Part shown: piece by piece, positions 25,901-48,852 of the stretch
Numbering within the stretch: the first letter of the stretch is position 1
Layout of the letters: each line of letters opens with the position of its first letter
Assembly (NCBI GenBank): GCA_036655355.1
Contig: JAVVQG010000015.1
Coordinates: forward strand, 7,406-71,405
From: Bacteroidales bacterium
GTDB taxonomy: Bacteria; Bacteroidota; Bacteroidia; Bacteroidales; JAUNSR01
Direction: 5' to 3'
DNA: 64,000 bases
Notes under the pieces: generated by a model
Told to the model about the DNA's origin: nothing
The model's input: only the letters and a program-made list of their open reading frames with translations
Database searches by the model: none
Made by a program: the position numbers and the translations under genes

Positions 25901-26239
25901 GAAGAAGCGCCGGAAATCATCAACCGGATCAAATCGCTCGTGAACGCTCCCGCAGTGCATGCCTGGTTTGCCCCCGAAGCGAATGTTTTCAATGAAACGG
26001 AGATCCTCATCGCCGACGGCACCTTTCTGCGCCCCGACCGCGTGGTAATGATCGATGATACGGTGATCGTAATCGATTATAAATTCGGTAAGAAAGAACA
26101 AAAATCTTATATTAGACAAGTAACAGGTTACATGCAGCAACTGTATGCTATGGGATACGAAAAGGTGGAAGGCTACCTTTGGTACGTCGAATTGGATAAG
26201 ACAGTACGAATCGAATCACCACAACTCAGCTTATTCTAA
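22979..26239 (+). CDS. UvrD/AddA-type helicase with C-terminal PD-(D/E)XK nuclease domain
   Basis: 1086-aa ORF with Walker A ASAGSGKTY, the helicase motif FMIDEFQDTS, and a C-terminal nuclease-like motif (DRVVMIDDTVIVIDYKFGK). No AddB-like partner lies in the window. Confidence 0.8.
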   Translation: MLTVYRASAGSGKTYLLTGTFLRMLFTENTTFDNILAVTFTNKATDEMKQRIIEQLHLLSVQPEKSGYLKMLTEQFGISTAQVRAKARKVLISILHDFSGFNVSTIDRFFQQTTRSFTREIGLQGGYEVELDTDKVRNEAIDRMIAGLANPENKKTLDWLLLFSNDRTESGKDWNTRKELLSLSREILKEDYKKNSEKILAFTENKENLEDFIKEIKVLMNDFEEASKEIGTSALEIMKANDLTPTDFTGGSRSQFKYFELWAKGEIKPPTPSFLKLEEGVENWSAKTTPAGKKMMIQGAFDAGLKECVEQVIYLYGNLSRIYDSAKATLRYIYTVGILSDIDRNMRDYSRENNIMLITDTTELLHKVIDGKDTPFVYEKIGTRIKHFMIDEFQDTSGMQWDNFKPLISDSIAQDFSNLIVGDVKQSIYRWRNSDWMLLHDGIRRYEPEQREDCVLDTNWRSCKNIVDFNNTFFTMAANMLQDKYNAAVDKAETSARIGEEYRSMISSAYTDIYQKVPKEKQDQAGHVRVEFIDNEKEESWREEVLNRLPDTLIELQKQGYPLKDIAILVRTGREGAVIADTLLTYKAEHPESPYRFDVISNEALFISQAPVIRMIISFMNYLNNPSSDINKVIAAYNLFMNVEGSSAEKALADYFYDEPQAHAYFNKMIIEESESLRKLPLFEMSEKIIDLVIRRDNPSDKVYVQAFQDLVVDFTTSNTADLSAFLTWWEATGERKTISTPDSQDAIRILTIHKSKGLGFKAVIVPFAAWDIDHEAIKENIIWCEPTLEPFNKLPMIPVRYGSSLLNTIYAENYLTEMRQAFIDNLNIAYVAFTRAKEELIVFAPKEKKPEDLKHIGSVLYSAMEWSRLPVDDREYLNLSELFDPEEQCFEAGNWWNAGVEKEKGIEEISMGRYISIDPGSRLQLRLHGKGYFQDKEERLYGNLMHEILSAIKYPEDIEGAVREFVRKGSFREEEAPEIINRIKSLVNAPAVHAWFAPEANVFNETEILIADGTFLRPDRVVMIDDTVIVIDYKFGKKEQKSYIRQVTGYMQQLYAMGYEKVEGYLWYVELDKTVRIESPQLSLF

Positions 26240-26312
26240 ATTTACACACTCAATTATTTATTCATCATTACAGTTTATTCATTTAACTGTTTACTCAATT
26301 CATTTTTTACCT

Positions 26313-28982: not shown

Positions 28983-29008
28983 AAAGGCAATACTAGATTT
29001 ACAAAAAA

Positions 29009-29041
29009 TCCCCCTGAAACGTTTTCAGGGGGATTTTTTTT
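29009..29041 (+). terminator. Intrinsic (potentially bidirectional) terminator after the GH2 gene
   Basis: 11-bp stem tccccctgaaa/tttcaggggga followed by T8. An A-run precedes it. Confidence 0.85.
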
Positions 29042-29149
29042 GAAATAACCGGATTGGTTGTAAAATTAATTTTCAAGGATTTCATCGCCCCAAGCACTCA
29101 ATTTGAATTGGGATGGACTATAACTTAATTCAGATAAACCATAGGGTGC

Positions 29150-29222
29150 GAACCACGGCCGTGGTTCAGTCGAAGCAAGGCCGTGGTTCGACCGAAGCAA
29201 GGCCTTGCTTCGACTGAACCAC
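29150..29222. repeat. Mosaic nested palindrome built from two modules around GGCC cores
   Basis: With A=gaaccac and B=cgaagcaa, it reads as A-GGCC-A', B-GGCC-A', B-GGCC-B', A. It contains a 20-nt perfect inverted repeat (29161..29180 with 29203..29222). Confidence 0.8.
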
Positions 29223-29368
29223 CGTCTTGCTTTTTTTGATATATAGGAGCAGAAAGGAAATTCAAAGGATCGGTTTGGAATTTCATAGGATCAAAACCAC
29301 TACACTCTTCAAAATCAAGCCTTTGTTTTACTCCACCTTCATTAAAATTGCTCCTGAAAGATACTGAT

Positions 29369-29472
29369 TTATTTATTAATAACCCTCAGATTCTTCATAT
29401 ACCCCTTGAAATCACCCGTTTTCTGAAGCGGGAAGACTAGCGTCTGGTTGTAGTTGAATTTCGCTTTTTCCT
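29369..29472 (-). pseudogene. Displaced 3'-terminal fragment (last ~33 codons plus stop) of a GH20 gene; left copy of the island-flanking direct repeat
   Basis: 29370..29472 aligns without gaps to 40544..40646, with 4 mismatches in the first 39 bp and then 64 bp identical. It translates on the minus strand to ...EKAKFNYNQTLVFPLQKTGDFKGYMKNLRVINK*, against ...KVINK* in the intact gene. Confidence 0.85.
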
Positions 29473-29679
29473 ATGTAATAATTATTGATACTATAAAGGC
29501 TTATGAAATCAGCGTAACTAGAAATAAAGATTCCAAAGAAAATACGAGGGAGGGACGTATAAATAACACCATAGAGAACAAACTCTTAAAATAATATATT
29601 ATTCATAACTTAAATGAGTCCTATTTTGAATGATTTTTGCAAAAGCACAAACGAAACCAAAATATTACTTATTTATTTA

Positions 29680-29687
29680 TATTTTTG
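29680..29687 (+). promoter_or_regulatory. Candidate -7 promoter box (TAnnTTTG) for the island operon
   Basis: Reads TATTTTTG, about 100 nt upstream of the ATG at 29788. I saw no clear -33 TTTG. Confidence 0.3.
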
Positions 29688-29787
29688 CAATTATTTAAAA
29701 TACATATTCCAAAAACACATCTCCTCTTATTCCACTATCCAATCAATACAACCATTTATTTTACATCATAATATAAATAAACTATAT

Positions 29788-31053
29788 ATGAAATTAAACA
29801 AAGGCTTACCTCTTTTCGCATATTGTCTCCTTTCCGTATTCCTTCTATTTAGTTGCGGGAAAAAGAATCGAGTATCTGAAGAAACAAAAGAGGACGTAAT
29901 AACAGAACTTACGAAATCGACTCTGCCAATAACAAATAGTATTTTTTATCTTGAGAATTCCGGAAGCATGCTAGGTTATGTGGCTACCGGGGGCTCTGAC
30001 TTTGTTCGCTCTGTCGCGGAAATCGTTTCTAAATCAGACTTTAATGATACTGATAAAAAATATTTCTTAATCAATGCAGTAACTACACCTCTTGGTGATA
30101 GCAAGCAGAAATTTAATCAAGCTTTATCCCCGACAGGAATGAGGCAAGGTAATATTGCAGATAGTGATTTAGTTAAAATGATATCTCAAGTAATGAATCA
30201 CGCAAATGATTCTTCTATAAGTATCCTTATTACAGATGCTATATTCTCAATACAAAACAAATCAAAATCGCTGATAGAAAATCAACTAATTACAAAAAGT
30301 GGAGACACAAAAACCGAATTCTACAACATGCTTTCCAAATGGGATATGCAGACCATATTAATTAAAATGAATTCGCACTTTAAAGGAAACTATTACACAG
30401 CGAGTGGTAGTCGCATAGCCGTTGACCATAATAGGCCTTATTATATCTGGATCTTTGGGCCTTCTGCACATCTTTCAACGGTATTTAACAGCAATTATAT
30501 AGAAACACTTCCGGGTTATGAGGCGATGAGTAGATTCTTATTATTAGATAAAGAGAATGAAGTGAATTTTGCCATTGTAAACAATAACCGAAAAGGAAAA
30601 TTCAAACAATCAAAAAAGGATCCAGCACTTCTTACTTTTGAAGGACGTGACCGTAACACGAAAGAATTTCAATTTTCAGTGGCCATTGATTTATCTCATA
30701 TTCCTTGTTCGAATGAATACTTTAAAGATCCCATGAACTATTCTATAAGCTCAAATTATGAGTTAATAGAAATTGCGGAAACTACGGATGTCAAGTTTAC
30801 TCAAAAACTGAGCTTTACCCCAACCCATTTACTGACCTTTCGAGCAACCCAGACTCCATTCGGGGAATTATCAGTGGCGTTGTTATCTGACCGGAATAAA
30901 TGGGTTGAAGAATCTAGCAACATCGACGATTCGATAGTTGATTCATATTCAACTTTTGGTTTCAGCTATTTAGTAGAAGGTGTACGCCGAGCATATCACG
31001 AAAAACAGGGAGACTCGAATCTTCTAAACTTCAAAATAACAGTTAACAAATAA
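29788..31053 (+). CDS. Island gene 1: lipoprotein with vWA-like domain (variant MIDAS E-N-S-G-S)
   Basis: The track ORF starts at 29614. The ATG at 29788 gives a lipoprotein signal MKLNKGLPLFAYCLLSVFLLFSCGKK. IFYLENSGSM (motif at 29953..29967) followed later by SISILITDAIFS resembles the vWA strand/MIDAS pattern (DxSGS...TDG). The family assignment is by eye only. Confidence 0.55.
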   Translation: MKLNKGLPLFAYCLLSVFLLFSCGKKNRVSEETKEDVITELTKSTLPITNSIFYLENSGSMLGYVATGGSDFVRSVAEIVSKSDFNDTDKKYFLINAVTTPLGDSKQKFNQALSPTGMRQGNIADSDLVKMISQVMNHANDSSISILITDAIFSIQNKSKSLIENQLITKSGDTKTEFYNMLSKWDMQTILIKMNSHFKGNYYTASGSRIAVDHNRPYYIWIFGPSAHLSTVFNSNYIETLPGYEAMSRFLLLDKENEVNFAIVNNNRKGKFKQSKKDPALLTFEGRDRNTKEFQFSVAIDLSHIPCSNEYFKDPMNYSISSNYELIEIAETTDVKFTQKLSFTPTHLLTFRATQTPFGELSVALLSDRNKWVEESSNIDDSIVDSYSTFGFSYLVEGVRRAYHEKQGDSNLLNFKITVNK

Positions 31054-31062
31054 ACAAATACA

Positions 31063-31494
31063 ATGAACGATCTATTTGCAACAGTTTATGAATTGTGGAT
31101 ATACAATCAAGATTATCAGGATATTTTCCAAACTATGTATGATGGAAATGACGGATTATTTTCGCATTATTCCTTGATAGGCCTTCTAACACTCTTTGTG
31201 TCATTATCTGCAGCGATTATCTTCTATTTCTTGATACGTTACCCTTACACCAAGATATGGCATTGGCTTCTTTATGCATTCGGCATTGGGGTATTTTTAG
31301 TGGGAGGAATCACATATGGTTATCTACAGGAGTCTTTGATTGAGTTTACCCAGGATTCAGAAATGTCTGATATTACAAACCGAATAATCCTGAACTATTC
31401 GGTATATAACACAGTGGCCTTTTTATTATTTTTCACAGGATTGAGTCTCGTGTTAAAAAGAGTAAGCAAACATCAATACCATTTACCTTTTTAA
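31063..31494 (+). CDS. Island gene 2: small polytopic membrane protein
   Basis: 143-aa ORF with three clear hydrophobic spans (LIGLLTLFVSLSAAIIFYFLI, WHWLLYAFGIGVFLVGGITYGYL, VYNTVAFLLFFTGLSLVL). It starts 9 nt after gene 1. Confidence 0.7.
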   Translation: MNDLFATVYELWIYNQDYQDIFQTMYDGNDGLFSHYSLIGLLTLFVSLSAAIIFYFLIRYPYTKIWHWLLYAFGIGVFLVGGITYGYLQESLIEFTQDSEMSDITNRIILNYSVYNTVAFLLFFTGLSLVLKRVSKHQYHLPF

Positions 31495-31513
31495 ACTTAT
31501 TGAACTTTTTTAT

Positions 31514-32920
31514 ATGGCAAAAATATATTTATTCGCTATTGGGGGTACGGGGTCACGCGTACTTAAAGCACTTACTTTGTTATTTGCATCGGGATGTAAA
31601 TTACCAAATGGTTTTGACACTGTGGTCCCAATCATTCTGGACCCAGATTTACAAAATGGAGATATGAATCGAACGTGTGACATCATCGGTTATTATCGGA
31701 ATATCCGTAAATCGATGGAAGTACCTAACGACTTTTTTTCTCAAAAAATTGAAGCACTCAAAGCGGAGAATGGAGTGAATGAAAAGATCTTATTCTCTAT
31801 CAATACACAAGAACAAGACTTTTCTAGTTTCATAGATTATAACTTACAAACAAAAGAAGATAAGCATTTTCTGAATCTCCTATTTTCTCAGAACAATCTT
31901 GATTCAGACCTTTCGGTAGGCTTTAAGGGTAATCCGAATATGGGAGCAGTCGTATTAAATAGGTTTATTGAGTCGGATGATTTTGCAAATTTCATAAATG
32001 CCTTCCAATCCAACGACGCCATTTTCATCGTCAGTTCTATTTTTGGAGGGACTGGTGCAGCAGGATTTCCTTTGGTATTAAAGACTCTTCGCTCAGATTT
32101 ACATGGAAAGCCAGAGATCAAAAATGCCAAGATTGGAGCCATTTCTCTCCAACCCTATTTTAATGTAGAAATCAATGCAGAAAGTGCCATTGATTCTTCG
32201 ACTTTTAACGAAAAGGCAAAGGTGGCTCTAGAGTATTATAAACGTACCATTCACCAAACAAATTTGTTGGAGTGTCTCTATTTAATTGGATATGATAGTC
32301 CAACTCCCATCCCTAATTCAGACGGTGCAGCCACCCAAAAGAATAAGGCCAACTTCATCGAAATGGCAGCAGCTCTCTCACTATTCGATTTTTGTAAATC
32401 TATTGACAGGGTGGATCGACATATTGAATCGGAAATTCGAGAATTTGGAGTGGAAGATGACACATTGCCTTATTCTTTTACTTCATTAAACAGAATTGAC
32501 TATGATGTTGTGGCTGAAAATATGGCCAAATTCAAATTAATGAGCAATTACTTGAATTCCGATAATAAAAAGACTTCTTGGCGGAAATATTTTGAAGAGA
32601 ACTTCTTTCATGAAACTGATTATTCGAATCTACGAAAGGTATTCGAAAATTATGAAGAATGGCTTCAAGAGATGTCACTTAGCCACCCTGAATTCAAACC
32701 ATTCCAAGAAGTTGAAGAGAGTAAAGCGATGAATTTCATTGTTGGAAAATCATGTAAAAGCAGTTTTCTAGGATTTGGGGGAACTACCAATTATCAGGAA
32801 CTGGACACACAACTGAATGAGTTTATCAAGAAGAGTGAAGAGAAAGCGTTATTTCCAAAGTTTGTAAAAATGTTTGACGGAGCAACTGAATCTACGCTTC
32901 AAAAAAAGAAATTGATTTAA
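31514..32920 (+). CDS. Island gene 3: divergent tubulin/FtsZ-superfamily GTPase (Tubulin_2-like)
   Basis: 468-aa ORF with an N-terminal glycine loop LFAIGGTGSRVLKAL and the tubulin-signature-like SSIFGGTGAAGFP (GGTGAAG at 32045..32065). There is no P-loop GK[ST]. Confidence 0.6.
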   Translation: MAKIYLFAIGGTGSRVLKALTLLFASGCKLPNGFDTVVPIILDPDLQNGDMNRTCDIIGYYRNIRKSMEVPNDFFSQKIEALKAENGVNEKILFSINTQEQDFSSFIDYNLQTKEDKHFLNLLFSQNNLDSDLSVGFKGNPNMGAVVLNRFIESDDFANFINAFQSNDAIFIVSSIFGGTGAAGFPLVLKTLRSDLHGKPEIKNAKIGAISLQPYFNVEINAESAIDSSTFNEKAKVALEYYKRTIHQTNLLECLYLIGYDSPTPIPNSDGAATQKNKANFIEMAAALSLFDFCKSIDRVDRHIESEIREFGVEDDTLPYSFTSLNRIDYDVVAENMAKFKLMSNYLNSDNKKTSWRKYFEENFFHETDYSNLRKVFENYEEWLQEMSLSHPEFKPFQEVEESKAMNFIVGKSCKSSFLGFGGTTNYQELDTQLNEFIKKSEEKALFPKFVKMFDGATESTLQKKKLI

Positions 32921-32921
32921 T

Positions 32922-35900
32922 ATGGCCAAAAAGACTCTACGACTACATAATTATGCCCAACATAACAGTGGATGGCATACTAGCATTTTCCCTCCCCAGG
33001 ATACTGTAAACGGGATTATGTCAAATTGCGACGTAATAGCGACGTCTATACCGTCACCGTTTGCGCAGTTTGATCTTATAAAATCAGCTTTTGAACTTGT
33101 TGTACGTAATAGATGTGTACAAGGAGATACCCCTCAACATCGTTTGATTTCTTATACCCTAGATGTTGCTCAACTATTTTATCTCTCAGAGAGATATAAA
33201 GAAATTTTAAAAATAATTCCTTGGAGATGCTCAAATTTGAATGAATTGGCCGACAATGAAACGTTGCGAAATTCGCTACAGGCATATTGGGATCAAGATG
33301 AAGAAGTTTATGATTTTAATCGAGTTGATGAGCTTTTTTTCTTGCTATATGACAATACAATTGTTGGCAGTACATCTCCCACCACCATGTTTGTGCCTTC
33401 GCCGGATGTGCCAATGTTGGGAATAGATCTAAGATCAGGAACACACACCTTCTTTAAAGAGATTCGTTCCTTGGAAGAGCGTGACGATGATTTTATTTTA
33501 TATTTCTATCATTTAGTGAATCAAGATCACCGTACGCTAAAAATGCCCGAATTGCGTAAATATCTAGATTTCATTTTAAAAGACAAAACACTCTTAGATC
33601 GAACTGTTCGTAATAAAATAGTGAATGGAGAATTTCCAGAATATTCTCCTTGTACGGTAGCTACAACCCATCTTTGTATAGTTGGTCCACATACGTTAGG
33701 ATTAACCATGCCTAAATGTGATAGTATTCAGGAGGAGAGCGATTTCATCATCAAGCCCGATTTTGAAACAAATGAATCTTTAATTCCCATGGTTCTTCCT
33801 AATAAAGCATTTAACTCTCGATGGGTGTATACAACTAAAGGGGTAAACTGGGAATATACAAATATGGCGCCTGAGACCGGAGGTGATGTACTTCCTTTCT
33901 TAGGGGAACCCTATCCTTGGTTGGGAATTGGGGATTTTCTTGAAGACAAACTAATCCGTATTCCCTATTCAATTGATCATGAACATTTCTTCTCAGCTAA
34001 GAACTCAAAAGGTGAAAATCTAAATGTTCTATTGCCACTTAAAGAGGTTTTCTTCAAATACTTTAGCGCTGATTATCTGAATCGATATATAACTATTTCG
34101 GAAGGAATTAACAAATCTATTACAGTAAGATTGAATATTCCTACTCGAAAGGGCATAGTTAGTTTGGAGAAAACCTACAATATAGCTGATATTGATTCAT
34201 GGGCCGGAGATATTGCAATTTTACCATTTTATAAATCGGTGAATCCGGACATCAACATTCAGTATAAATTTGGAGTGATTGATGGTGAAACCAATAAAGG
34301 TGCAACCGTACCAGAATTTTCTTTATTGAATAAAGGACACCGTATTGAGAATATTAACTCCACGGTTCGCTTAGATGGGGTAATTTCCTCTTTTTATTCT
34401 GCTTTTTCTAATTATCAAGGCGATTTTGACGTAATTATCATTCGTAAAAACAAATTACAAGGAGTAATCGTTCCTCTTCTCAAAACTTACCAGGGAACCG
34501 GCAACGGCATGGACGCTTCCATTGATTTTGGCACAACGAACACCCATATCGAATGTAAAATCGGGGAAAAGATTTCTGAATTGGCATATGATGAGAATAG
34601 TGCTCTTTACAAAACATTCTTGAAAGATGATGCGATGCATATTCAGAGCCAACAACGCTATTTGGAACACCAACTCGTGCCTCTTCAAGTGGGCAAAAAG
34701 GAAGAAGGTAGCGTATCGTTCCCACTCCGTAGTGCCCTTTTGATTAATAAGAACAAAAGCATACATACAAATCAGATTCCTTTCCAAGATGCAAATGCCC
34801 ATTTATTGCATAATGAAATTATTGAATCGGGAATATTCACATCAGTGACTAATCTAAAATGGGAAAATTTTGATAATGAAGAGGCGAGAGAACGTCTTAA
34901 TGTTTACCTAGGAAGTATCCTACATTTAATTTATTACAAGGCGATTTCTACCAATAGCGACCTTAGAGCAATTAATATTACATGGTTTTACCCCGTTAGT
35001 TTGTCTGTGAATAATCTTCAGATTATGGAACAAACATGGTCGAACAAATTTAAAGCGCTTTTCCCCGCTTCTGACATCAATCGATTAAGTAAGATTACGG
35101 AAAGTATTGCACCTTATTATTATTACCGTAAGCATGGTAATCAAGTGATGGGGTTGTCGGCCTCCATTGATATTGGTGGGGGATCTGCTGATCTTGCCAT
35201 CTTCGATGGAAAGATACAGAACAATAATACCCCAATCACCATCTCTTCCTTCAAATTTGCCTGCAATGTAATTTTTGGAGACGGGTTCTCGGGAAGTCCT
35301 GATTCTAATGGTTTTGTTCAGTATTTTAAAGATAATATATCCAAGAAGGTCGATTCAAAACAACGCCAGAAACTGGAGTATATTCTTGAGAATAACGATT
35401 CTACCGAGTTTAGCAATTTCGCTTTCTCAATGCAGAATTATAATTATCTGGAAGAAATTCGTTATACAAGCGACATCAAACTTTGTGTATTGATATATTA
35501 TGCTGCAGTGATCTATTACCTCGCCCAGTTCATGAAGCGCAACGGAAATGATATTCCAAGAAACCTAATGTTTAGTGGTAATGGTTCCAAAACATTGGAG
35601 ATTCTTGACTGTTCGCCAAACAAAGCGATTATTGGCAAACTATTTACAGGAATTTTCTCTCACGTTTTCAATAAAAAGACAGATCAGTTGATTCGTGTTA
35701 TTACCGATGAAGATCCGAAAGTGTTAACCTGTAAGGGTGCTCTTTCTATTAATCAGAATAATGTGCGTAACACTAATTCAGGGGAAGAGAACGCAGGAAT
35801 CATTTCAACTGAACTCAAACATTGGATTGGAGGTATAAATGAAGAGAGAACGGATAGGATTGTTTTAGCTAACGATTTTAATGACCTCTTTGCCTATAAT

Positions 35901-36203
35901 GAAATTGAGAATTCCCATATTAACTCTGTACTCCATTCAGTTAAAGACTTTTATCAGATGTGTGATTCATGTTTTTCACGAGAGTGTGAAATCACCAATA
36001 ATTTTGGAATTGACAAATCAGCGTACGCTTGTTTTGAAGATATCCGGAATATAGATTTAAAAGATTATCTGGAACGTGGTATTGAAGATGCTCAGTCAAG
36101 AGAAGGAATTAAAGCTCCTTTAAGCCAGACACTATTCTTCTATCCTTTGATTGGAGTATTGGCTAATTTAGCGGCTACAATAAATTCGAATAAAACGAAA
36201 TAA
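32922..36203 (+). CDS. Island gene 4: 1093-aa protein with C-terminal actin/Hsp70-fold (ASKHA) ATPase module and an unassigned ~500-aa N-terminal region
   Basis: Phosphate-1-like DASIDFGTTNT (34524..34544), phosphate-2-like SIDIGGGSADLAIFD (35169..35192), and adenosine-like LMFSGNGSKT. It starts 1 nt after the gene 3 stop. Confidence 0.6.
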   Translation: MAKKTLRLHNYAQHNSGWHTSIFPPQDTVNGIMSNCDVIATSIPSPFAQFDLIKSAFELVVRNRCVQGDTPQHRLISYTLDVAQLFYLSERYKEILKIIPWRCSNLNELADNETLRNSLQAYWDQDEEVYDFNRVDELFFLLYDNTIVGSTSPTTMFVPSPDVPMLGIDLRSGTHTFFKEIRSLEERDDDFILYFYHLVNQDHRTLKMPELRKYLDFILKDKTLLDRTVRNKIVNGEFPEYSPCTVATTHLCIVGPHTLGLTMPKCDSIQEESDFIIKPDFETNESLIPMVLPNKAFNSRWVYTTKGVNWEYTNMAPETGGDVLPFLGEPYPWLGIGDFLEDKLIRIPYSIDHEHFFSAKNSKGENLNVLLPLKEVFFKYFSADYLNRYITISEGINKSITVRLNIPTRKGIVSLEKTYNIADIDSWAGDIAILPFYKSVNPDINIQYKFGVIDGETNKGATVPEFSLLNKGHRIENINSTVRLDGVISSFYSAFSNYQGDFDVIIIRKNKLQGVIVPLLKTYQGTGNGMDASIDFGTTNTHIECKIGEKISELAYDENSALYKTFLKDDAMHIQSQQRYLEHQLVPLQVGKKEEGSVSFPLRSALLINKNKSIHTNQIPFQDANAHLLHNEIIESGIFTSVTNLKWENFDNEEARERLNVYLGSILHLIYYKAISTNSDLRAINITWFYPVSLSVNNLQIMEQTWSNKFKALFPASDINRLSKITESIAPYYYYRKHGNQVMGLSASIDIGGGSADLAIFDGKIQNNNTPITISSFKFACNVIFGDGFSGSPDSNGFVQYFKDNISKKVDSKQRQKLEYILENNDSTEFSNFAFSMQNYNYLEEIRYTSDIKLCVLIYYAAVIYYLAQFMKRNGNDIPRNLMFSGNGSKTLEILDCSPNKAIIGKLFTGIFSHVFNKKTDQLIRVITDEDPKVLTCKGALSINQNNVRNTNSGEENAGIISTELKHWIGGINEERTDRIVLANDFNDLFAYNEIENSHINSVLHSVKDFYQMCDSCFSRECEITNNFGIDKSAYACFEDIRNIDLKDYLERGIEDAQSREGIKAPLSQTLFFYPLIGVLANLAATINSNKTK

Positions 36204-36213
36204 GCACCCATTC

Positions 36214-36852
36214 ATGAAGAATATTTTTAGATCTTCTAAGAAGAACATTGAAATCCTTGACGATGAGAAAATGGTCAATAAAACATGTCAGGATCAGAAT
36301 GATATAAAAGAGTTGAAATCTCAGATATCCAATCTAAACTCACACATAATCAGCTTAAAAAGAGAAATCTATGAGGTTCGAAACATTGCTTCCGAATTGA
36401 AAGAGTGTTTGGATTATTTAAGATCTATTCCCGGGGAAAAACTCTCCGGGAAACCTATTACGATATCTTCGAAAGAGAATAGCCAGGATTTTGTTCTTGT
36501 ATCCTCTCAATCTCTTATAACTGAGAAAAACACTCCTGAAAAATATAAATTTATCAGTGTACCTTCGTACACTAAGGAGGTGGTTCCCTGTGATCATTTT
36601 GTAGGCCGCGATCATTATTATGAAATCATATTCGATCAACTGAGTGAAAACAAAGCATTTTTTAGAGTATCTCCAAAAGCTGACTTTCAGCGAATGTTGG
36701 GCTTGCCTGATACTTATATTTCGGAGGCATGCGACTCTATAAATGATGCATTGGGTAACTTAAGCAAAGTTGAGACCATTCAAAGGGGTGAACTTGAAAA
36801 AACGCCGAAGGGGTGGCGTCTGACAAAGAAAGCCCAAATCAAATTTATTTAA
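36214..36852 (+). CDS. Island gene 5: coiled-coil protein with C-terminal domain shared with gene 6
   Basis: 212-aa ORF with heptad-like IKELKSQISNLNSHIISLKREIYEVRNIASELKE. Its C-terminal ~90 aa align by eye with the C-terminus of gene 6. Confidence 0.6.
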   Translation: MKNIFRSSKKNIEILDDEKMVNKTCQDQNDIKELKSQISNLNSHIISLKREIYEVRNIASELKECLDYLRSIPGEKLSGKPITISSKENSQDFVLVSSQSLITEKNTPEKYKFISVPSYTKEVVPCDHFVGRDHYYEIIFDQLSENKAFFRVSPKADFQRMLGLPDTYISEACDSINDALGNLSKVETIQRGELEKTPKGWRLTKKAQIKFI

Positions 36853-36862
36853 AATAGAATCA

Positions 36863-38797
36863 ATGCAATTATTAGAATATCTTATCATCGGAGCTATTAT
36901 TATTTATCAGTTTGTTTTTTCATTTAAATTGATTCGAAATATATCTCTCTACAAATTCTTATTTAAAAATGAAGTATCAATTCTCTCATATGAGAAAACG
37001 GCACCCAAACTCATCGCAGATTCCGATAATTTGTATCTCGAGCGTATTATTACTCCTTTGAACCGTTACCTGACGGCAAATTTTGGAGCAGCCCTAAACT
37101 TCACAATTATCAAGGATATTATTGACCGTGAAGTCGATTTGCGTGAAGAGGAAATTTCACAAAAACTGCCTGTCCCTCTGTATCTCGGGCTCGCAGCTAC
37201 GATGGTCGGAATTATTTGTGGGTTAATATCGATGGATGTCTCTGCTAACGAGGTTACATCTTCAATTTCGGGATTGATTTGGAGCGTTATGGTAGCAATG
37301 TTTGCAAGTCTTTGCGGGTTGGCTTGGACTACAATATTAACTTCATTTATTTATAAAGAGGCTCGAATCACAGTAGCTTCAGGAAAAGCCGATTTGTTAA
37401 ACCTCTTGCAAACCGATCTTATTCCAGAAATTAATAAAGCAGATGATAGTGAATTAAATGGCTTGAAAACCTGTTTAAATGAATTTTCTCGTCAATCTAC
37501 CTATATGATTGTGGAACTTAAAGCCATTGGCGAACAGACTGCTAGGGTAATGACCGATCAGAAAGCGATTATTAACAAAGTAGAGAATCTAGATATAAAC
37601 AAGATTGCAAAATATAATCTGGAAGTCTTTGAGAAAATAGATAATAGCTTCGAGGCCTTAAACCAATTCTCCGGTTATTTAGGGGAATTAAATAAAGTTG
37701 CAAATAAGTTAACTCATTTCGCTGAGAGCATCGATCAAGTAGAAACACTTATTCAAAATATTGATGCCAATACAACTCATTCGAATAAGTTGACTCAGTT
37801 TCTATCCACTCATCTAACAGAAATAGATAAAGTTAGTACTCAGACACAAAACGCTCTTGTTAAGTCTAATAACGATATAAGTCGTGTTATGGACGAATTA
37901 TACAAAGAGATTGGTATGCGAATGGATGGATTAAGTAATAATGCCTCTAATTTCGGGGTTGCGATGGAAGAGCATTCACGATTGCTGTATGAAGGAATGG
38001 AGAAAGTAGCCAAAGCAAATGCGGATCATCTAAGTTCTGTCTTAGTGGAATTTACACCGGACTTCAGACCTCTTGGGCAACTGAATCATCTTCATGAGGG
38101 GATTGAGACGCTCTCCAAATTGATGGCTGAAACCCTTAGAAAATTGGAAGATAGATTACTTCCGGATGTTGAGTCTATTAAGAAATCGAATGAAAGACTA
38201 GTCAATCCCGCTGCATTGTATGGGAACTCTCATGCGGGAGGATATATAAAGCCTGAGAAGAAAGAGGTTCATACAACCCCGCAAAATCACACGAGCATTC
38301 CAAATTCGATGAACATAGAGAACCTTATAGGGTCTACAAGCTCGATAGAATCTCCTCCTCAGAATATTAAGAGTAACCCTAATAATTTGAGCAATGATTA
38401 TCAGAATCAAAATCGTGTATTACGGACTGTTACCTCTCCGGCACCCCCGCGCCCTATTTATGTGGAATGGCCTGAAAACAATGCCCTTATTGTAAAAATT
38501 GATTCTCTTGTATTTAATAAGGATAAGCACATCTTTATAATACAACCTGATATGCACAACCCCAATAAAGGAACTTTTGACCTTTGCCATTTTGAGAACC
38601 ATCGGTTCCTTACGAAAAACTACAAGAACCTAGAAATAGCCTGTAACCTAAAGGAGGTATCAAATAAGGATCAGACTTTAGAAACGATTTCAGTGGGAAG
38701 GGTGACACTGAAGGGTGAAAGATGGGAAATTGAGAATAAGTTAGAATTGAAAGGAAAAAATCCCGTAAGCGCAGTTGGTAAATTTTTTGGTAAATGA
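36863..38797 (+). CDS. Island gene 6: MotA/ExbB/TolQ-like membrane protein with long helical cytoplasmic tail (ZorA-like architecture)
   Basis: 644-aa ORF with three transmembrane spans in an ExbB-like arrangement. PLYLGLAATMVGIICGL and VAMFASLCGLAWTTILTSF resemble the MotA_ExbB channel helices. These are followed by ~250 aa of predicted helix/coiled coil, an N/S/P-rich linker, and a ~100-aa C-terminal domain. Confidence 0.6.
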   Translation: MQLLEYLIIGAIIIYQFVFSFKLIRNISLYKFLFKNEVSILSYEKTAPKLIADSDNLYLERIITPLNRYLTANFGAALNFTIIKDIIDREVDLREEEISQKLPVPLYLGLAATMVGIICGLISMDVSANEVTSSISGLIWSVMVAMFASLCGLAWTTILTSFIYKEARITVASGKADLLNLLQTDLIPEINKADDSELNGLKTCLNEFSRQSTYMIVELKAIGEQTARVMTDQKAIINKVENLDINKIAKYNLEVFEKIDNSFEALNQFSGYLGELNKVANKLTHFAESIDQVETLIQNIDANTTHSNKLTQFLSTHLTEIDKVSTQTQNALVKSNNDISRVMDELYKEIGMRMDGLSNNASNFGVAMEEHSRLLYEGMEKVAKANADHLSSVLVEFTPDFRPLGQLNHLHEGIETLSKLMAETLRKLEDRLLPDVESIKKSNERLVNPAALYGNSHAGGYIKPEKKEVHTTPQNHTSIPNSMNIENLIGSTSSIESPPQNIKSNPNNLSNDYQNQNRVLRTVTSPAPPRPIYVEWPENNALIVKIDSLVFNKDKHIFIIQPDMHNPNKGTFDLCHFENHRFLTKNYKNLEIACNLKEVSNKDQTLETISVGRVTLKGERWEIENKLELKGKNPVSAVGKFFGK

Positions 38798-39513
38798 AAA
38801 GATCAAGACAACATCTCTTAATGCTATTGTTTCTCTTACCCTCTACTCTACTTTTATTTAATTCTTGTACAGGATGTAGCCCTTCCGGGAGAAATCGGTC
38901 TAGGGACAAAGTGATAAATGAAGTGGTGAGACCGTCGAAAGGAGGTGCAAACGATAACAATCTATCAACCTTATATAAAAATACTTGTCCAGGAGTATTG
39001 TTGATTTATACCTCCACTGAAGAGGCCACACTGCAAGGGACCGGCTTTTTCATCGCCTCTAATGGAATAGCTGTGAGTAACTATCATGTTTTCAAGTCTA
39101 CGTTGGTAGGTAAAGAAACGGTTCGGACCATAGATGGAACTTCCTATAAGATAGAGAGGGTATTGGAATCGAACCAAAATTTGGATTATATAATTTTTCA
39201 ATTAAAGGATTGCCATAATAATTCCTTTCTCCGGATTGCCTCTAATGAACCCATTATAGGGGAAGATTTGTTTGCGGTCGGAAATCCTAAAGGTCTTGAA
39301 CTCACATTATCAAAAGGAATTGCTTCCTCCTTTCGTGAGGGTAAAAATCTTATCCAAACTACCACAGAAATTACTCATGGAAGCAGTGGAGGACCTTTGT
39401 TGAATATGAAAGGAGAAGTAGTAGGAATTACTACTTCCGGGTATGGAGAGGCAAATCTGAATTTTGCAATTAATATCCAAAAGCTTAATTTAAAACGATT
39501 TATCAGAGAATGA
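38794..39513 (+). CDS. Island gene 7: trypsin-like (S1/Trypsin_2) serine protease lipoprotein
   Basis: 239-aa ORF with lipobox LLLFNSC. The triad contexts are VSNYHVF, NLDYIIFQL and THGSSGGPL (Ser codon at 39385..39387). Its ATGA overlaps the gene 6 stop. Confidence 0.8.
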   Translation: MKRSRQHLLMLLFLLPSTLLLFNSCTGCSPSGRNRSRDKVINEVVRPSKGGANDNNLSTLYKNTCPGVLLIYTSTEEATLQGTGFFIASNGIAVSNYHVFKSTLVGKETVRTIDGTSYKIERVLESNQNLDYIIFQLKDCHNNSFLRIASNEPIIGEDLFAVGNPKGLELTLSKGIASSFREGKNLIQTTTEITHGSSGGPLLNMKGEVVGITTSGYGEANLNFAINIQKLNLKRFIRE

Positions 39514-40181
39514 AGAAAAACAATTTTTTTTGGGTAAGTTATTCCGATTTGATGACCAGTTTATTTTTTATTGTCTTGCTGCTTTTTAGCCTGATGTGGT
39601 CACTTAATAAAGACCTGTCCGAAGATTCTGAGGCGGTAAAAGAAAAACTGGGCACCGCATTAAAAGATTATGAGGCAGTAAAGAAAGAATTGGGCACCGT
39701 CTTAGTTAAAAATAAAGAAGCTGAAAAAATAAAGGAGATAAAAAAAGCGATTGAAACCCTCCCCAAAGACTACTTCGTATTTGACTCTGATAATCAGCGC
39801 TTTCAACTCAGAAAAAACATTTCCTTTGAGATCAATAGTTCTGAAATTAACACCAATGATTATGAATATTTATCTCAGGTAGGTAATCAATTGGTAAATT
39901 TAATCAAGCGCTTGGATAATGAGCCCGGAATTCGTTATCTAGTATTGATCGAGGGAATGGCCTCCAAGGATAGTTACTCCCGCAATTATGAGCTCAGCTA
40001 TGAAAGAGCACTTTCTCTTTATCGTTTCTGGGAAACCTCGGGAATCTCTTTTGATCCAAACCGATGCGAGGTTCATATATCTGGAAGCGGAACAGGAGGA
40101 ATAGGACGTTTCCCTGAATCTGAAGAACGGAAAAACCAACGTTTCTTGATTCAGATTATTCCAAAAGTGGGAAATATCTAG
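39510..40181 (+). CDS. Island gene 8: MotB/OmpA-like protein (ZorB-like) with conserved transmembrane Asp and peptidoglycan-binding domain
   Basis: 223-aa ORF. The N-terminal FWVSYSDLMTSLFFIVLLLF matches the MotB pattern xYADxMTxxxxFF, with the Asp codon at 39546..39548. The C-terminal OmpA_C-like blocks are LIEGMASKDSYSRNYELSYERALSLYRFW and NQRFLIQI. Its ATGA overlaps the gene 7 stop. Confidence 0.75.
   Translation: MKKNNFFWVSYSDLMTSLFFIVLLLFSLMWSLNKDLSEDSEAVKEKLGTALKDYEAVKKELGTVLVKNKEAEKIKEIKKAIETLPKDYFVFDSDNQRFQLRKNISFEINSSEINTNDYEYLSQVGNQLVNLIKRLDNEPGIRYLVLIEGMASKDSYSRNYELSYERALSLYRFWETSGISFDPNRCEVHISGSGTGGIGRFPESEERKNQRFLIQIIPKVGNI
39630..39713 (+). repeat. In-frame diverged 42-bp tandem duplication inside island gene 8
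   Basis: EAVKEKLGTALKDY / EAVKKELGTVLVKN, with about 70% nucleotide identity between the two units. Confidence 0.8.
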
Positions 40182-40350
40182 TTGTTGATAAATCGAGAAT
40201 CCTTTATCTTAATTGATTAATGCTAATTTACTTTTTGCAATAAATATGGCAATTTCACTGGGGAGTTTGCTTTTCGCCACCATTAAGGTTTTTATTTTTC
40301 AGATTACTCTTTTATCTGTTAGGCTTCATATTACTCTTACGAATTAAAAA

Positions 40351-40409
40351 TCGCCCCTACATTCCGGCACTACGAAGGAATTAAACCTTCCGCCATAATG
40401 TAGGGGCGA
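40351..40409. repeat. 13-bp perfect inverted repeat with structured 33-nt spacer at the right end of the island
   Basis: tcgcccctacatt (40351..40363) pairs with aatgtaggggcga (40397..40409). An inner gaagg/ccttc stem lies in the spacer. There is no clear T-run. Confidence 0.6.
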
Positions 40410-40542
40410 ATAATTATTTAAAAATGCATTTTAGACCCTATAGCAAGTTTCACATAAGGTATTCAACAATCGGACTTCCGAGAAAAATTGAACGAGTGTA
40501 AACGTAAATACGCTAGCATTACTTTTTAGCTTTCCGTTTAAC

Positions 40543-42489
40543 CTATTTATTAATAACCTTCAGATTCTTCATATAGCCTTTAAAATCACCCGTTTTCTGA
40601 AGCGGGAAGACTAGCGTCTGGTTGTAGTTGAATTTCGCTTTTTCCTGTTGGTCTTTGTAAACCGGAACCACTTCGAGCGTTTCGATCAGGTGACCGTTTA
40701 CGTAGAATTTGGTAGAGACGTTATTTCCCTCAAATGCGAGCGTTAGCGTCTTATCGTTCGGGATGACGTAGTTGAACGTGTAATTGTAGCCATCGCGACT
40801 AAAGCCGACTTTACCTGTTTCAGGATCGCGAAGATATACTACTGCATCAGGCGATTCAAATAATACGGCTCCGTTCTTATTATCCTTCGAATAAAGATCG
40901 AACTCAACAAAATAATCATATCCGATCTCTTTCAGAGGCGTTTCACTATTTGCCGCAATGGAATCGAGACGAAGGATCTCTCCTTTCTCTTTATAAGTAC
41001 CCATGATGTTAACACCCGGAGCCTCACCGATCAACTTCGATTTTGCCGTAAAGGTATCAAAATCGGCACCGGTCTTCTTCCCTTTCCACATCTTGGTAGA
41101 TAACGTTTTCATGGATGGCAATACACGGTGATGCACATCCTTCTGTGAGATTCCATTGCCTACATGATCATTCCATACGGCGAACATTCCCCCTTTAATC
41201 TGCGGGTCGTTTTCGTCGAACACTTGATTGCCGATAACCGCCGGAGTCCAGTTCTCATAAAGGTGTTTATTATTCAAATAATCGTAGTAATAACCGGCTT
41301 TCGGAACAATGTACACCAATCCGTCGGGGATGCTCACCATTTCGTAACCCAGTTTCTTCATCTCTTGCGGATCGGCGTATCCGTTGTACCAGCAAAGCAT
41401 CAATACGCTGTCAACCTTCACCGGAGTCTCCCCTTTGGCATGCGTCAGTGCGCCCCACAGAGCAGCCTGTTTGCCGAAGCTTTCGATGTAATTGATGTAT
41501 CGGTCTGTAAAATATCTGAATTTCTCTACAACTTCTTTGTTCTTGTTTGAATACTCATCCGTTCCGATATGTACATATTTCCCTCTGAAAACAGGGTCAT
41601 CCCCTTCAAGGTATTCTTTGAAGAGCCCATCCATAAATTCGTAGGTTTTCGGATTGAATAGATCGAAATGGTCCATTCCGTACTCTTTGCTTCCGATTTC
41701 GGGCATGTAATGGGTAAACGCGAGTACGTGTGCCGGTGCATCGATTTCCGGAATAATCAAAACCCCGTAACTCTCGGCAAGCTTCTGTAAATCTTTAAAC
41801 TCCTGCTTTGTGTAAGAGCCGTCTTTTGCGGTCAGTCCGGGATATGTTTCGCTTTCCAGGCGAAAAGCCGCATAGGTATTATCCCAGTTATCGCCCCAGA
41901 ATTGTTTGAATCCGTTATCGTTGAGATGAATCTGGAACGTATTCATCTTATAATAAGACATAAAACGGACATACTGCTTCAGGAAGTCAAGTGTAAAGAA
42001 CTTTCTACCGCAATCGAGCATAAACCCACGCAAAGGGTAAGCGGGATAATCCACGATCTTCCCTTTCGGCAGTTTGTGATTATCACTTTGCTCGGTCATC
42101 TGCAGCAACGTTTGGGCTGCCCAGTTGATACCGATCGGATTGTTCGCGCCAATTTCAATCGTGTTATTGATATTGATGAAATAAGCCTCCTCATTTTTAG
42201 AAGAAGGTTTTTTAGCGGTAATCACGATATCGCCGGCCTTTGCTTTCTGTTTTGTTACCACCTCGATATCAAGGTCGGCGATTTTCTTCAGATCTTCGGC
42301 AAAGCGGGTCGCATAATCGAATGCATCGGGATTGTTACAGATGATTTTAGCATCGGAGGTAAGGTTGAAATGTCCCGTCGAGCCTTTCCAGCTCTGTAAT
42401 TCAGGTACCACAAAGGGTTTTTGATTCATCTGGGCGAAAAGTGTCCCCGTAATGAAGGTTAAGATAAAGAGAATACTGAATTTTCTCAT
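40543..42489 (-). CDS. GH20 beta-N-acetylhexosaminidase
   Basis: 648-aa ORF with a signal peptide and GH20 blocks RGFMLDCGRKFF and HIGTDEY. Confidence 0.85.
   Translation of the reverse strand: MRKFSILFILTFITGTLFAQMNQKPFVVPELQSWKGSTGHFNLTSDAKIICNNPDAFDYATRFAEDLKKIADLDIEVVTKQKAKAGDIVITAKKPSSKNEEAYFININNTIEIGANNPIGINWAAQTLLQMTEQSDNHKLPKGKIVDYPAYPLRGFMLDCGRKFFTLDFLKQYVRFMSYYKMNTFQIHLNDNGFKQFWGDNWDNTYAAFRLESETYPGLTAKDGSYTKQEFKDLQKLAESYGVLIIPEIDAPAHVLAFTHYMPEIGSKEYGMDHFDLFNPKTYEFMDGLFKEYLEGDDPVFRGKYVHIGTDEYSNKNKEVVEKFRYFTDRYINYIESFGKQAALWGALTHAKGETPVKVDSVLMLCWYNGYADPQEMKKLGYEMVSIPDGLVYIVPKAGYYYDYLNNKHLYENWTPAVIGNQVFDENDPQIKGGMFAVWNDHVGNGISQKDVHHRVLPSMKTLSTKMWKGKKTGADFDTFTAKSKLIGEAPGVNIMGTYKEKGEILRLDSIAANSETPLKEIGYDYFVEFDLYSKDNKNGAVLFESPDAVVYLRDPETGKVGFSRDGYNYTFNYVIPNDKTLTLAFEGNNVSTKFYVNGHLIETLEVVPVYKDQQEKAKFNYNQTLVFPLQKTGDFKGYMKNLKVINK
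40544..40646. repeat. Right copy of the 103-bp island-flanking direct repeat (lies within the functional GH20 3' end)
   Basis: See 29369..29472. The identical 64-bp core is 40583..40646. Confidence 0.85.
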
Positions 42490-42518
42490 AGTACGAAATT
42501 TAATTTATTGATGTAATA

Positions 42519-42557
42519 GATAATGCGATTGGATAATGTGATTAGATAATGTGATTA
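42519..42557. repeat. 3 x 13-bp tandem repeat (gataatgYgattR) upstream of the GH20 gene
   Basis: The three units are gataatgcgattg, gataatgtgatta and gataatgtgatta, lying 30-68 nt upstream of the ATG at 42489. Confidence 0.8.
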
Positions 42558-42762
42558 GACAAGGCCTTTGGATTAACGATGCCAAATATAACTAAATATC
42601 AATGATATGCCATATTTTATCTAAAGATGAGCGTCCCGGCGACAGCTAAGGTCGCGGTGTTAAGGTAAGGAGTAAGGAGCAAGGAGCACGTACCTCTTTT
42701 TTATAAAATACAAAAGGGAGCCTTTACAAAGACTCCCTTTTATATTATGATTCAAAAATCAA

Positions 42763-42933
42763 TTAGTTTCCCGGATGAATAGCTTCAGTAGGACAAACAT
42801 CTGCACAAGTACCACAGTCAGTACATAGTTCAGGATTGATTGAATAGATATCTCCTTCAGAGATAGCTGAAACCGGACATTCATCGATACAAGTACCGCA
42901 TGCGATACAATCTTCTGATATTACGTAAGCCAT
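42763..42933 (-). CDS. 2x[4Fe-4S] ferredoxin (56 aa; below the ORF-track cut-off)
   Basis: My own translation gives MAYVISEDCIACGTCIDECPVSAISEGDIYSINPELCTDCGTCADVCPTEAIHPGN*, which contains two CxxCxxCxxxCP motifs. Confidence 0.85.
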   Translation of the reverse strand: MAYVISEDCIACGTCIDECPVSAISEGDIYSINPELCTDCGTCADVCPTEAIHPGN

Positions 42934-42975
42934 TTTTGTAAAGTATTTAATTGAATTAGTACTAAATTAGCATTG

Positions 42976-42983
42976 CAAAAATA
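42976..42983 (-). promoter_or_regulatory. Candidate -7 promoter box (TAnnTTTG) for the ferredoxin gene
   Basis: Minus strand reads TATTTTTG, about 43 nt upstream of the ATG at 42933. Confidence 0.45.
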
Positions 42984-43133
42984 GACGTTTTTAATATCCA
43001 ACAAAGTAAAATGCGATTATTTTTTCAAATTGCCTGCAAGTACGGAGCAATCTAACTCATTCATAACATGATAACATAAGAGATGTAATAATTAACCTCT
43101 CTTTACGTTATCTAAGGATAAGAACCATTACAA

Positions 43134-43841
43134 ATGCAACATTTAAAAAACATTCTGCTCCTTTTTTTACTCCTCTTCAGCATACCGGGAAGCGCCCAAA
43201 CCGAGAAAGTACGCAACCTCATGTATGTGGATCAGCGACGCGTTCATTTCGGGTTCATGCTCGGATTGCATGCACAGGATCTTTCGTTTCGGCATTCCGG
43301 CTTTGTCACAGCCGATGGCGAGACTTGGTTTGCCGAGATTCCACATTTCTCACCCGGCTTTGCAGTGGGATTGGTTGGCGATCTGGCCTTTACCGAACGC
43401 ATCAACCTGCGTTTTACTCCGAGCATGTATTTCGGAAGCAAATATGTGGAGATGCGTGAAATCGGATCAAAAGAGAAGGTGACACAAGATATCAAATCCA
43501 ATTACCTGGCTTTTCCGGTTAGCATCCGATACAGCGCTCGCCGGGTAAATAATTACCGTCCCTACCTGATTACCGGTGTGAGTCCGTCGTTCGATCTCTC
43601 GAAACGCAAGGATACACCCTTGGTATTGAAGCGTTTCGATACGGCGCTGGAGATTGGCTTCGGGTGCGATCTTTACCTTCCTTACTTCAAACTGATTCCG
43701 GAATTGAAATTCAGTTTCGGACTATTGGATGTACTTGAACACAACAGAAAAGACCTGCGCGATCCGACAATGATCAAATACACGCAGGCCTTGAATAAGG
43801 TGAAGTCCAGAATGGTTGTTCTCTCTTTTTATTTTGAATAG
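43134..43841 (+). CDS. PorT/SprT-like outer-membrane beta-barrel protein
   Basis: 235-aa ORF with a signal peptide ending SAQ. The early HFGFMLGLHAQDLSF block, alternating beta pattern, and C-terminal Phe-rich end resemble PorT family proteins. Confidence 0.55.
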   Translation: MQHLKNILLLFLLLFSIPGSAQTEKVRNLMYVDQRRVHFGFMLGLHAQDLSFRHSGFVTADGETWFAEIPHFSPGFAVGLVGDLAFTERINLRFTPSMYFGSKYVEMREIGSKEKVTQDIKSNYLAFPVSIRYSARRVNNYRPYLITGVSPSFDLSKRKDTPLVLKRFDTALEIGFGCDLYLPYFKLIPELKFSFGLLDVLEHNRKDLRDPTMIKYTQALNKVKSRMVVLSFYFE

Positions 43842-43932
43842 ATATCGGAAAGCTTTGTTCTGTCGCGCAAAGAGCTGCAAGGCGGTATGCACCGGTTCTC
43901 GATGTTGAGACATAGGTGGTCACATGACACCT

Positions 43933-46959: not shown

Positions 46960-46996
46960 TTTTATGTTTTTCTAAAAGGATGAAGATGAAAGGTGC

Positions 46997-47764: not shown

Positions 47765-47794
47765 GAGTTTTTGTGTGAAGGGTGATTACTTGAT

Positions 47795-48640: not shown

Positions 48641-48852
48641 AATTAATAGAATAATATTGATATATACAAAGGAAACGGATTTTTGCCTTTTTGACAAGTT
48701 AAAAAGGGAGTAAATTATTTTTTAACCCGTTAGCTATTTGTGTATTTCACAGAAAATTAGTTCCTTTGCGTCGCTTTACGTAATCTCTGGCAGGGAACGC
48801 TACTTGTTTACATTACGCAAAGAAATTATAACTCTATAAATATCTATTAAAG

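Follow-up and report, generated by a model that had tools for sequence, protein, structure and literature searches.

How did a block of foreign genes, which codes for no integrase, come to be bracketed by two copies of the 3' end of a glycoside hydrolase gene? The question is raised by a 64,000-nucleotide stretch of a Bacteroidales bacterium (GTDB lineage JAUNSR01; NCBI GenBank assembly GCA_036655355.1, contig JAVVQG010000015.1, positions 7,406 to 71,405 of the forward strand), hereafter the window, in which an 11,174-bp island with a single eight-gene, plus-strand operon abuts the end of a gene for a glycoside hydrolase of the GH20 family. The insertion at the GH20 end is real; a sister strain of the same species has the gene end without the island. 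Its probable explanation, and the one that we favour, is a Campbell-type insertion by an integrase that acted in trans or has been lost.

The duplicated gene end and the empty site

The junctions of the island, and the gene that it abuts, are as follows:

29369..29472, minus strand: copy A, the displaced native GH20 3' end (34 codons and TAA), a non-coding relic at an attL-like junction, where the host arm and core give way to island DNA
29473..29787, plus strand: island leader, 315 bp, AT-rich (GC 0.24-0.32), non-coding, with no recombinase remnant
40182..40543, no strand: island trailer, 362 bp, non-coding, with a hairpin of 27-nt arms at 40342-40418 (inverted repeat I4)
40544..40646, minus strand: copy B, the working GH20 3' end at an attR-like junction, with the stop-proximal 39 bp and TAG imported and a 64-bp core equal to that of copy A
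40543..42489, minus strand: GH20 beta-N-acetylhexosaminidase, the target gene (Pfam GH20 and GH20b), intact and of host-like composition

Alignment of 29370-29472 with 40544-40646 yields a gapless 103-bp direct repeat with four mismatches (29385, 29402, 29405 and 29408 in the numbering of copy A; 96% identity), in which the gene-proximal 64 bp (29409-29472 and 40583-40646) show zero differences. On the minus strand each copy spells the last 34 codons of the GH20 gene and an in-frame stop, TAA in copy A and TAG in copy B, and the encoded peptides differ by K->R alone. Beyond the stop codon, and beyond 29472/40646 at the opposite end, there is no similarity. The initial annotation had reported this gapless repeat with its four differences and identical 64 bp, the two in-frame stops and the lack of similarity past the ends, all of which the alignment reproduces. 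With up to three mismatches allowed, the 64-mer core occurs just twice in the window and not once in 100 dinucleotide-preserving shuffles. The window has neither a third copy of the repeat nor a tandem or accreted element, and no terminal inverted repeats were found at the island. Copy B completes the GH20 gene, leaving the protein unchanged.

The interval between the repeats is horizontally acquired and compositionally foreign. Its GC content is 0.34-0.39 against about 0.50 in the flanks; the GC content at third codon positions (GC3) is 0.32-0.39 in the eight island genes, 0.48-0.70 in 26 flanking genes and 0.52 in the GH20 gene; and 3-kb windows of the island lie 9-11 standard deviations (z) from the window background in tetranucleotide distance. 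The AT-richness noted in the initial annotation thus extends to windowed GC, GC3 and tetranucleotide usage, all of which deviate. The foreign composition is limited to 29.0-40.5 kb, and the GH20 gene itself is host-like. Given its GC of 0.44, we considered this gene as part of a larger island and ruled that out, as its GC3 is in the host range and its divergence from the sister allele (0.77%) is flank-like. By alignment, the trailer (40182-40543) is unrelated to the native sequence downstream of the GH20 gene (29199-29368); its hairpin could terminate both the operon and the GH20 gene.

The GH20 protein of the window is identical to the representative of a cluster present in four Bacteroidales metagenome-assembled genome (MAG) records, and a variant with three amino-acid differences is encoded on contig L089 of MAG GCA_964383375.1. 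Positions 9754-11946 of this contig align at 98% identity with 42756-40544 of the window, covering the GH20 gene and its promoter region, and positions 11844-12117 continue, island-free, into 29472-29199 of the window at 97% identity, with a single 103-bp copy. Other contigs of the same MAG match the left flank (L096, with 16313-28999, 99.28%) and the right flank (L101, with 43081-48801, 99.44%); hence, we regard this MAG as a sister strain of the same species. Over the GH20 coding region the two alleles differ at 15 of 1944 positions, about one per 160 bp. The initial annotation had predicted an empty site in which the GH2-family glycoside hydrolase gene, a 0.4-kb spacer and the GH20 gene would follow one another with one copy of the 103 bp. 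The single copy, and the passage from GH20 into the sequence left of copy A, are present on L089; the full gene order is only partly seen, as L089 ends 273 bp beyond the repeat, inside an array of 22-bp palindromes, which leaves the GH2 linkage outside the contig, and L096 diverges from the window 17 bp past the GH2 stop (break 28999/29000) and is unrelated thereafter. The case that had been named as speaking against an insertion, an islandless strain with both repeats, is not what the sister strain presents: it lacks the island at this site and has one copy only. An ancestral islandless allele and one restored by precise loss via the 64-bp repeat would look alike. Among genome contigs with a GH20 gene, the scan found nothing nearer than 62% identity and hence no empty site there. 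GH20 homologues of 82-88% identity (L081-L088) were rejected as comparators for the site, since they have nothing in common with the window outside the gene.

The sister allele also tells the two copies apart. At 29402, 29405 and 29408 it has the copy-A state (TTC AAG GGG), and it shares with copy A the TAA stop and the downstream flank; hence, copy A, with the left flank, is the native gene end that has been displaced. Relative to the empty-site allele, copy B has synonymous changes at 40576, 40579 and 40582 and another stop codon, and is otherwise the same. Given that the state of copy A is native, the 39 bp and TAG of copy B, along with the 362-bp trailer, were imported with the island, and this imported end keeps the GH20 gene full length. 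The crossover lies within the 64-bp identical block, on the gene side of 29408. The initial annotation had assigned copy A the structure B-O-P' and copy B the structure P-O-B', an assignment that the states, stop and flank of the sister allele support. At 29385 the sister allele has AAG, like copy B, and copy A has AGG: K->R is a private mutation of the non-coding relic. Accordingly, the pattern of three synonymous differences and one K->R stands as first described, but the latter does not set the element apart from the chromosome, since the empty site and copy B are both AAG. For annotation, 29369-29472 should be treated as a 34-codon relic rather than as a gene, and the C-terminus of the GH20 protein is partly element-derived.

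The imported arm bears three consecutive third-codon synonymous changes (TTC AAG GGG to TTT AAA GGC). When the 15 differences over the gene were simulated, the probability of three within 7 bp was P = 0.01 anywhere in the gene and 5e-4 in the last 103 bp. Hence, we infer from the sequence that the arm would have been copied from a functional GH20 allele diverged by about 3%. The initial annotation had taken the selection pattern of all four differences to imply that the element previously resided at a homologous GH20 gene; the synonymous changes fit such an allele, and K->R, private to the relic, has no part in the pattern. The same changes bear on the possibility that the repeat is a local product, with an illegitimate insertion inside the GH20 end giving a 103-bp target duplication and the differences arising by later mutation or short gene conversion. 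The copies are indeed 96% identical, and K->R is just such a later change in the relic. However, the other three differences sit in the functional copy, in consecutive codons and without effect on the protein, and neither the stop nor any sequence beyond copy B is related to the native end. We know of no insertion mechanism that gives 103-bp target duplications, and we give a local origin next to no credence.

It might also be asked whether the assembly itself created the junctions, by threading the loop of a separate circle through the 64-bp core into an uninterrupted chromosome. The window comes from a metagenome assembly, as does the uninterrupted site, which is present in the same species. 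Moreover, the Logan unitigs from four samples, L090 (29443-40612) and L098 (40617-48801), end 30 nt into the core, as a k = 31 graph gives; L090 does so on both sides, and a circle is equally compatible with it, such that these unitigs fit either integration or an empty site with a free circle. On the other hand, the core is shorter than a sequencing read and so resolvable by reads, and the integrated path is the same in two MAG contigs, one of at least 64 kb and the other of 56.6 kb. The second of these, L097 (GCA_036650035.1, 56.6 kb), is 100% identical to 33134-49196 of the window over 16 kb. No plasmid-type replication or partition genes are recognisable in the island with Pfam and NCBIfam, and a circle would still be the attP form of the same element. 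An artefact is thus very improbable.

Insertion at the gene end

Integrative elements that target the 3' ends of genes, whether for tRNA, tmRNA or proteins, carry a surrogate gene end in attP; they use tyrosine integrases, and the NBU-type elements of Bacteroides are among them. The island matches these in its intact target gene, the identity block reaching to the gene end, the displaced native end at the far junction and the foreign composition. It differs from them in lacking an integrase of its own, which is their defining trait, and in that its target is a glycoside hydrolase gene. Jointly, the empty site, the duplicated gene end and a surrogate end that brings along its stop and terminator require a single reciprocal crossover between the chromosome and a circle that bore a GH20 end.

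We propose that a circular intermediate carrying a 103-bp copy of the GH20 gene end met the chromosome and underwent a single reciprocal, Campbell-type crossover at the extreme 3' end of the GH20 gene. This crossover would have been catalysed by a tyrosine integrase of the Bacteroidetes type, encoded elsewhere in the genome or since lost. That the arm was apparently copied from a GH20 allele would mean that the island earlier sat at the same site in a related lineage. The 64-bp perfect repeat would also permit precise, RecA-mediated loss, which would regenerate the allele of the sister strain.

The case for an integrase draws in part on relatives of the island. The tubulin-like protein encoded by its third gene belongs to a large family (3381 matches, some of them annotated as PF13809, the FtsZl1 group of Makarova and Koonin), and scans of metagenomes and IMG/VR recovered 91 loci with the same gene order. 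The 141 ORFs flanking 80-odd related cassettes include 14 tyrosine integrases (Phage_integrase, SAM_5, Arm-DNA-bind_5) and five MobA/VirD2 relaxases, as well as TraM and DUF4138 proteins. In the following four lineages, the first cassette gene is preceded on its own strand by the integrase, at a distance of 10-750 bp:

First lineage: L140, L143, L185, L186 and L188
Second lineage: L150, L156 and L190
Third lineage: L157, L159 and L189
Fourth lineage: L176

In the first of these a 14-kb unit of integrase and cassette (6562-20548 of L143, compared with L140, L185, L186 and L188) is 96% identical, with sharp boundaries and with unrelated flanks on both sides in two contexts; judging from these alignments, it is a small mobile island. 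In the second lineage the cassettes are 97% identical and the integrases 71-79% identical, which suggests that cassettes have been swapped between integrase backbones. The islands of L143/L140, L150/L156/L190, L157/L159/L189 and L176 are like the one studied here in having the same conserved operon, in chromosomal, Bacteroidetes-type contigs. Unlike it, they encode a tyrosine integrase directly upstream, some with a MobA/VirD2 relaxase nearby, and no long end repeats were detected in them. Given that related cassettes adjoin such integrases, and that the homology of the repeat stops exactly at the stop codon, we prefer an integrase as the catalyst.

Several observations weigh against this preference. 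The sequence holds nothing that separates a crossover mediated by an integrase from one mediated by RecA, and metagenome assemblies, at contig level, are the source of both the window and the empty site. An integrase is absent from the island and from every main ORF of the 64-kb window, and neither the 315-bp leader nor the 362-bp trailer contains a pseudogene remnant in its stop-free frames. The relatives that bear integrases are distant, their tubulin-like proteins being 37-38% identical to that of the island; the flanks of the nearest relative (L091, 62%) are too short to judge, and those of L093 (about 43%) show no integrase. The GH20 end was not found in IMG/VR contigs. Finally, in a survey of 87 further GH20 loci not one repeats its own 3' end within 10 kb or has the cassette; as a test of GH20 ends as a recurrent att site this negative is weak, since an island this long would exceed the 10-kb flank.

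Wider searches for mobility genes gave the same picture. The initial annotation had seen no integrase, transposase or phage gene in the interval; the eight island ORFs match no such family in Pfam, PADLOC or NCBIfam, none of them is relaxase-like, and tblastn with four Bacteroidetes integrases against the whole window gave no match. Genes for tRNA or tmRNA are lacking in the window, and across 28.5-43.5 kb every Rfam family stays under its threshold. Against a phage collection the island gave no match, and against plasmids distant matches only.

These negatives invite an explanation that needs no site-specific enzyme, whereby the island moved by homology: either as a circle formed by RecA from the repeats in a prior host, or on a linear donor with the whole locus, recombining via the 103-bp arm or the flanking core genes. 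The arm is made up of true GH20 coding sequence with 97% identity to the host allele, and its perfect block of 64 bp is long enough for RecA; on the other side, integration would be very inefficient for a non-replicating circle that has only 103 bp of homology. The lack of any trace of integrase or mobilisation genes in what is a clean single operon is in keeping with movement of this kind, as is the setting in a strain-variable hotspot, where strains of 99.3% identity have further breaks at 28999 and 42756. The relatives point both ways: about 28 of 40 related cassettes with both flanks have no adjacent integrase, and L105, another cassette that lacks an integrase, lies between imperfect direct repeats of 141 bp (94% identity), but others are demonstrably located beside tyrosine integrases. 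What homology leaves unexplained is the origin of the first gene-end duplication; and homology that ends exactly at the stop, with a stop and terminator supplied by the element, is the classic signature of 3'-end targeting. On balance, we consider movement by homology, the main alternative, rather unlikely.

The cassette of L105 came from a search for bracketing repeats that covered 40 related cassettes and of which it is the sole credible case. Its tubulin-like protein is 41% identical to that of the island, and its repeats (13-153 and 11782-11922) are non-coding DNA with a hairpin; the contig ends just past both copies. Repeats at L122/L123 and L169 were rejected as island ends, since they are generic repeats, intergenic or palindromic, with copies elsewhere or with ordinary genes between them. 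Taken with the island, L105 admits a further speculation, which we regard as quite unlikely: that both are cargo modules moving without a dedicated recombinase, for which a captured gene end or intergenic segment would serve as a portable homology address in RecA excision and Campbell re-insertion between close strains, and that cassettes of the same type would alternatively travel behind different integrases.

If an integrase did act, as we favour, the island finds a structural counterpart in the cis-mobilizable elements (CIMEs), which are decay products of streptococcal integrative and conjugative or integrative and mobilizable elements (ICEs/IMEs) that have kept attL and attR and in which the genes for integration and transfer are absent (PMC5704250). 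The island is like these in its attL/attR-like repeats, one of which is the rebuilt 3' end of a protein gene, in having no integrase or transfer genes and in the retention of its cargo; by analogy, its retained att sites could serve an incoming element. It is unlike them in its Bacteroidales host, in showing no remnants of a decayed ICE or IME and in its long, 103-bp repeats. The resemblance would thus be one of structure only, an integrase-bearing ancestor being suggested by the distant relatives alone.

The two strains form a near-isogenic pair (about 99.3% identity) of gut-type Bacteroidales. At the site they differ by a single island with precise bounds, of which both junctions are known, as is the empty site. 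Whether an integrase-less island is moved by host recombination, in cis or in trans thereby becomes directly testable.

The cargo operon

The boundary structure of the island is of a known type; its cargo operon is uncharacterised. The eight genes are as follows:

29788..31053, plus strand: gene 1, lipoprotein whose conserved ExSxS motif (YIENSGSM) is similar to a MIDAS (metal-ion-dependent adhesion site)
31063..31494, plus strand: gene 2, 143-aa membrane protein, whose gene adjoins the tubulin-like gene in relatives too (conserved)
31514..32920, plus strand: gene 3, tubulin/FtsZ-fold GTPase of the FtsZl1 / Tubulin_2 type
32922..36203, plus strand: gene 4, 1093-aa protein with a ParM/actin-like ATPase domain at residues ~664-819
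36214..36852, plus strand: gene 5, 212 aa, no family match detectable (Pfam, NCBIfam)
36863..38797, plus strand: gene 6, ZorA/MotA-like membrane protein with a long coiled-coil tail
38794..39513, plus strand: gene 7, secreted trypsin-like serine protease (Pfam Trypsin_2, 4e-24)
39510..40181, plus strand: gene 8, ZorB/MotB-like protein with an OmpA-type peptidoglycan-binding domain

The leader upstream of these genes probably holds the operon promoter. For gene 1 the ORF was listed from 29614; the lipoprotein signal peptide begins at 29788 (MKLNKGLPLFAYCLLSVFLLFSC), which is most likely the true start. From its motif gene 1 may code for a vWA-like protein; Pfam and PDB profile searches with 39 homologues gave no vWA match, and a single-sequence AlphaFold model was unusable (pLDDT 36). 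The product of gene 3 matches Pfam Tubulin with an E-value of 9.5e-5, under the family cut-off, and its relatives are annotated as PF13809; its AlphaFold2 model (pLDDT 84, pTM 0.89) has top Foldseek matches that are all tubulin, FtsZ, CetZ or TubZ. In phmmer searches against the PDB the gene 4 protein, with the motifs DFGTTNT and DIGGGSAD, matches Clostridium ParM (E 8e-5). Gene 6 matches ZorA of PADLOC (E 1.9e-5) and ZorA_3 of NCBIfam (21.8 bits against a cut-off of 250). Gene 8 scores 28 bits with Pfam OmpA (cut-off 27.2), 7.8e-17 with PADLOC ZorB1 and 3e-4 with MotB of the PDB; with ZorB1 of NCBIfam it reaches 23.2 bits against a cut-off of 400.

The genes near the 3' end of the cassette vary among relatives, with a trypsin-like protease, an Endonuclease_NS protein, or an aspartyl protease with an SNase being encoded there. 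Such variation would be expected of a conflict system with a variable effector, which the slot of gene 7 may hold. With its two cytoskeletal folds and a stator-like pair, the cargo can be read as a defence-type or conflict system.

Two known systems offer comparisons. The FtsZl1 (Tubulin_2) operons described by Makarova and Koonin in 2010 were predicted to act in membrane remodelling, with no link to mobile islands (PMC2875224). The island operon shares with these the divergent tubulin/FtsZ-like GTPase in the company of OmpA-family and membrane proteins, and the sparse distribution reminiscent of horizontal transfer. It departs from them in the addition of an actin/ParM-like protein, a ZorA/ZorB-like pair and a protease, and its counterpart to their vWA partner is only an ExSxS motif. 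Zorya anti-phage systems consist of ZorAB and effectors (PMC11946911). The cargo recalls these in its MotA/MotB-like pair, its long-tailed ZorA-like protein, its variable position near the 3' end of the operon and its location in an island. However, its ZorA and ZorB matches are far under the curated cut-offs, and PADLOC finds no ZorC, D, E, F or G genes; on these two grounds, membership in Zorya was rejected. A full-text search found no published papers that relevantly link Zorya/ZorA with 'tubulin-like', and the papers that it returned on PF13809/Tubulin_2 treat the family in FtsZ/tubulin phylogeny or note it in passing as an annotation, and go no further.

The cargo operon is widely distributed (more than 80 loci), and the presence and absence of the island in the strain pair provide material for testing its function. 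The nearest relative, on an 11.3-kb Logan unitig (L091, SRR14300943) with a GC of 0.32 and a 62% identical tubulin-like protein, comes from a sample that also holds the host species of the window (L100, 99.6% identical in the right flank).

The surrounding locus

The rest of the window holds housekeeping and glycan-degradation genes, in the order pta, kdtA, gltX, xseA, mnmA, GH35, GH95, PorV, PorU, AddA-like helicase and GH2, followed by GH20, ferredoxin, an outer membrane protein (OMP), a GH3/beta-lactamase fusion, mraW, ftsI, murE and mraY. Three further features lie close to the island:

28998..29044, plus strand: terminator candidate hairpin of the GH2 gene (inverted repeat I5, 22-nt arms, 91% complementary), past the GH2 stop at 28982
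29149..29232, no strand: palindromic array of three 22-bp units, nested (repeat families D2, I1 and I2), in the host spacer; the L089 match ends inside it (29199)
42756..42757, no strand: second strain breakpoint, with a 56-aa ferredoxin gene (42763-42933, minus strand), the OMP and GH3 on the window side and GH43, GH35 and SusD on the L089 side

The hairpin at 28998-29044 is the likely terminator of the GH2 gene. The palindromic array may be a REP-like element at which assemblies break; its sole Rfam match is sub-threshold (RF02901, with 49.6 bits where the gathering score is 97). At the second breakpoint, which is 6 bp from the end of the ferredoxin gene, the GH43, GH35 and SusD genes of L089 (GC 0.43) lie upstream of GH20. 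Taken together, the comparisons between the strains suggest that the interval from the GH2 gene to the OMP gene is a strain-variable hotspot of multiple events.

The GH2 ORF (26145-28982) overlaps the gene for the AddA-like helicase-nuclease (22979-26239) by 95 bp; its database protein has 889 aa, and the true start is probably at 26313. At 43933-46959, on the minus strand and near the GH20 gene and the OMP beta-barrel gene, a 1008-aa protein is encoded in which the N- and C-terminal domains of a NagZ-like GH3 are fused to a serine beta-lactamase-fold domain.

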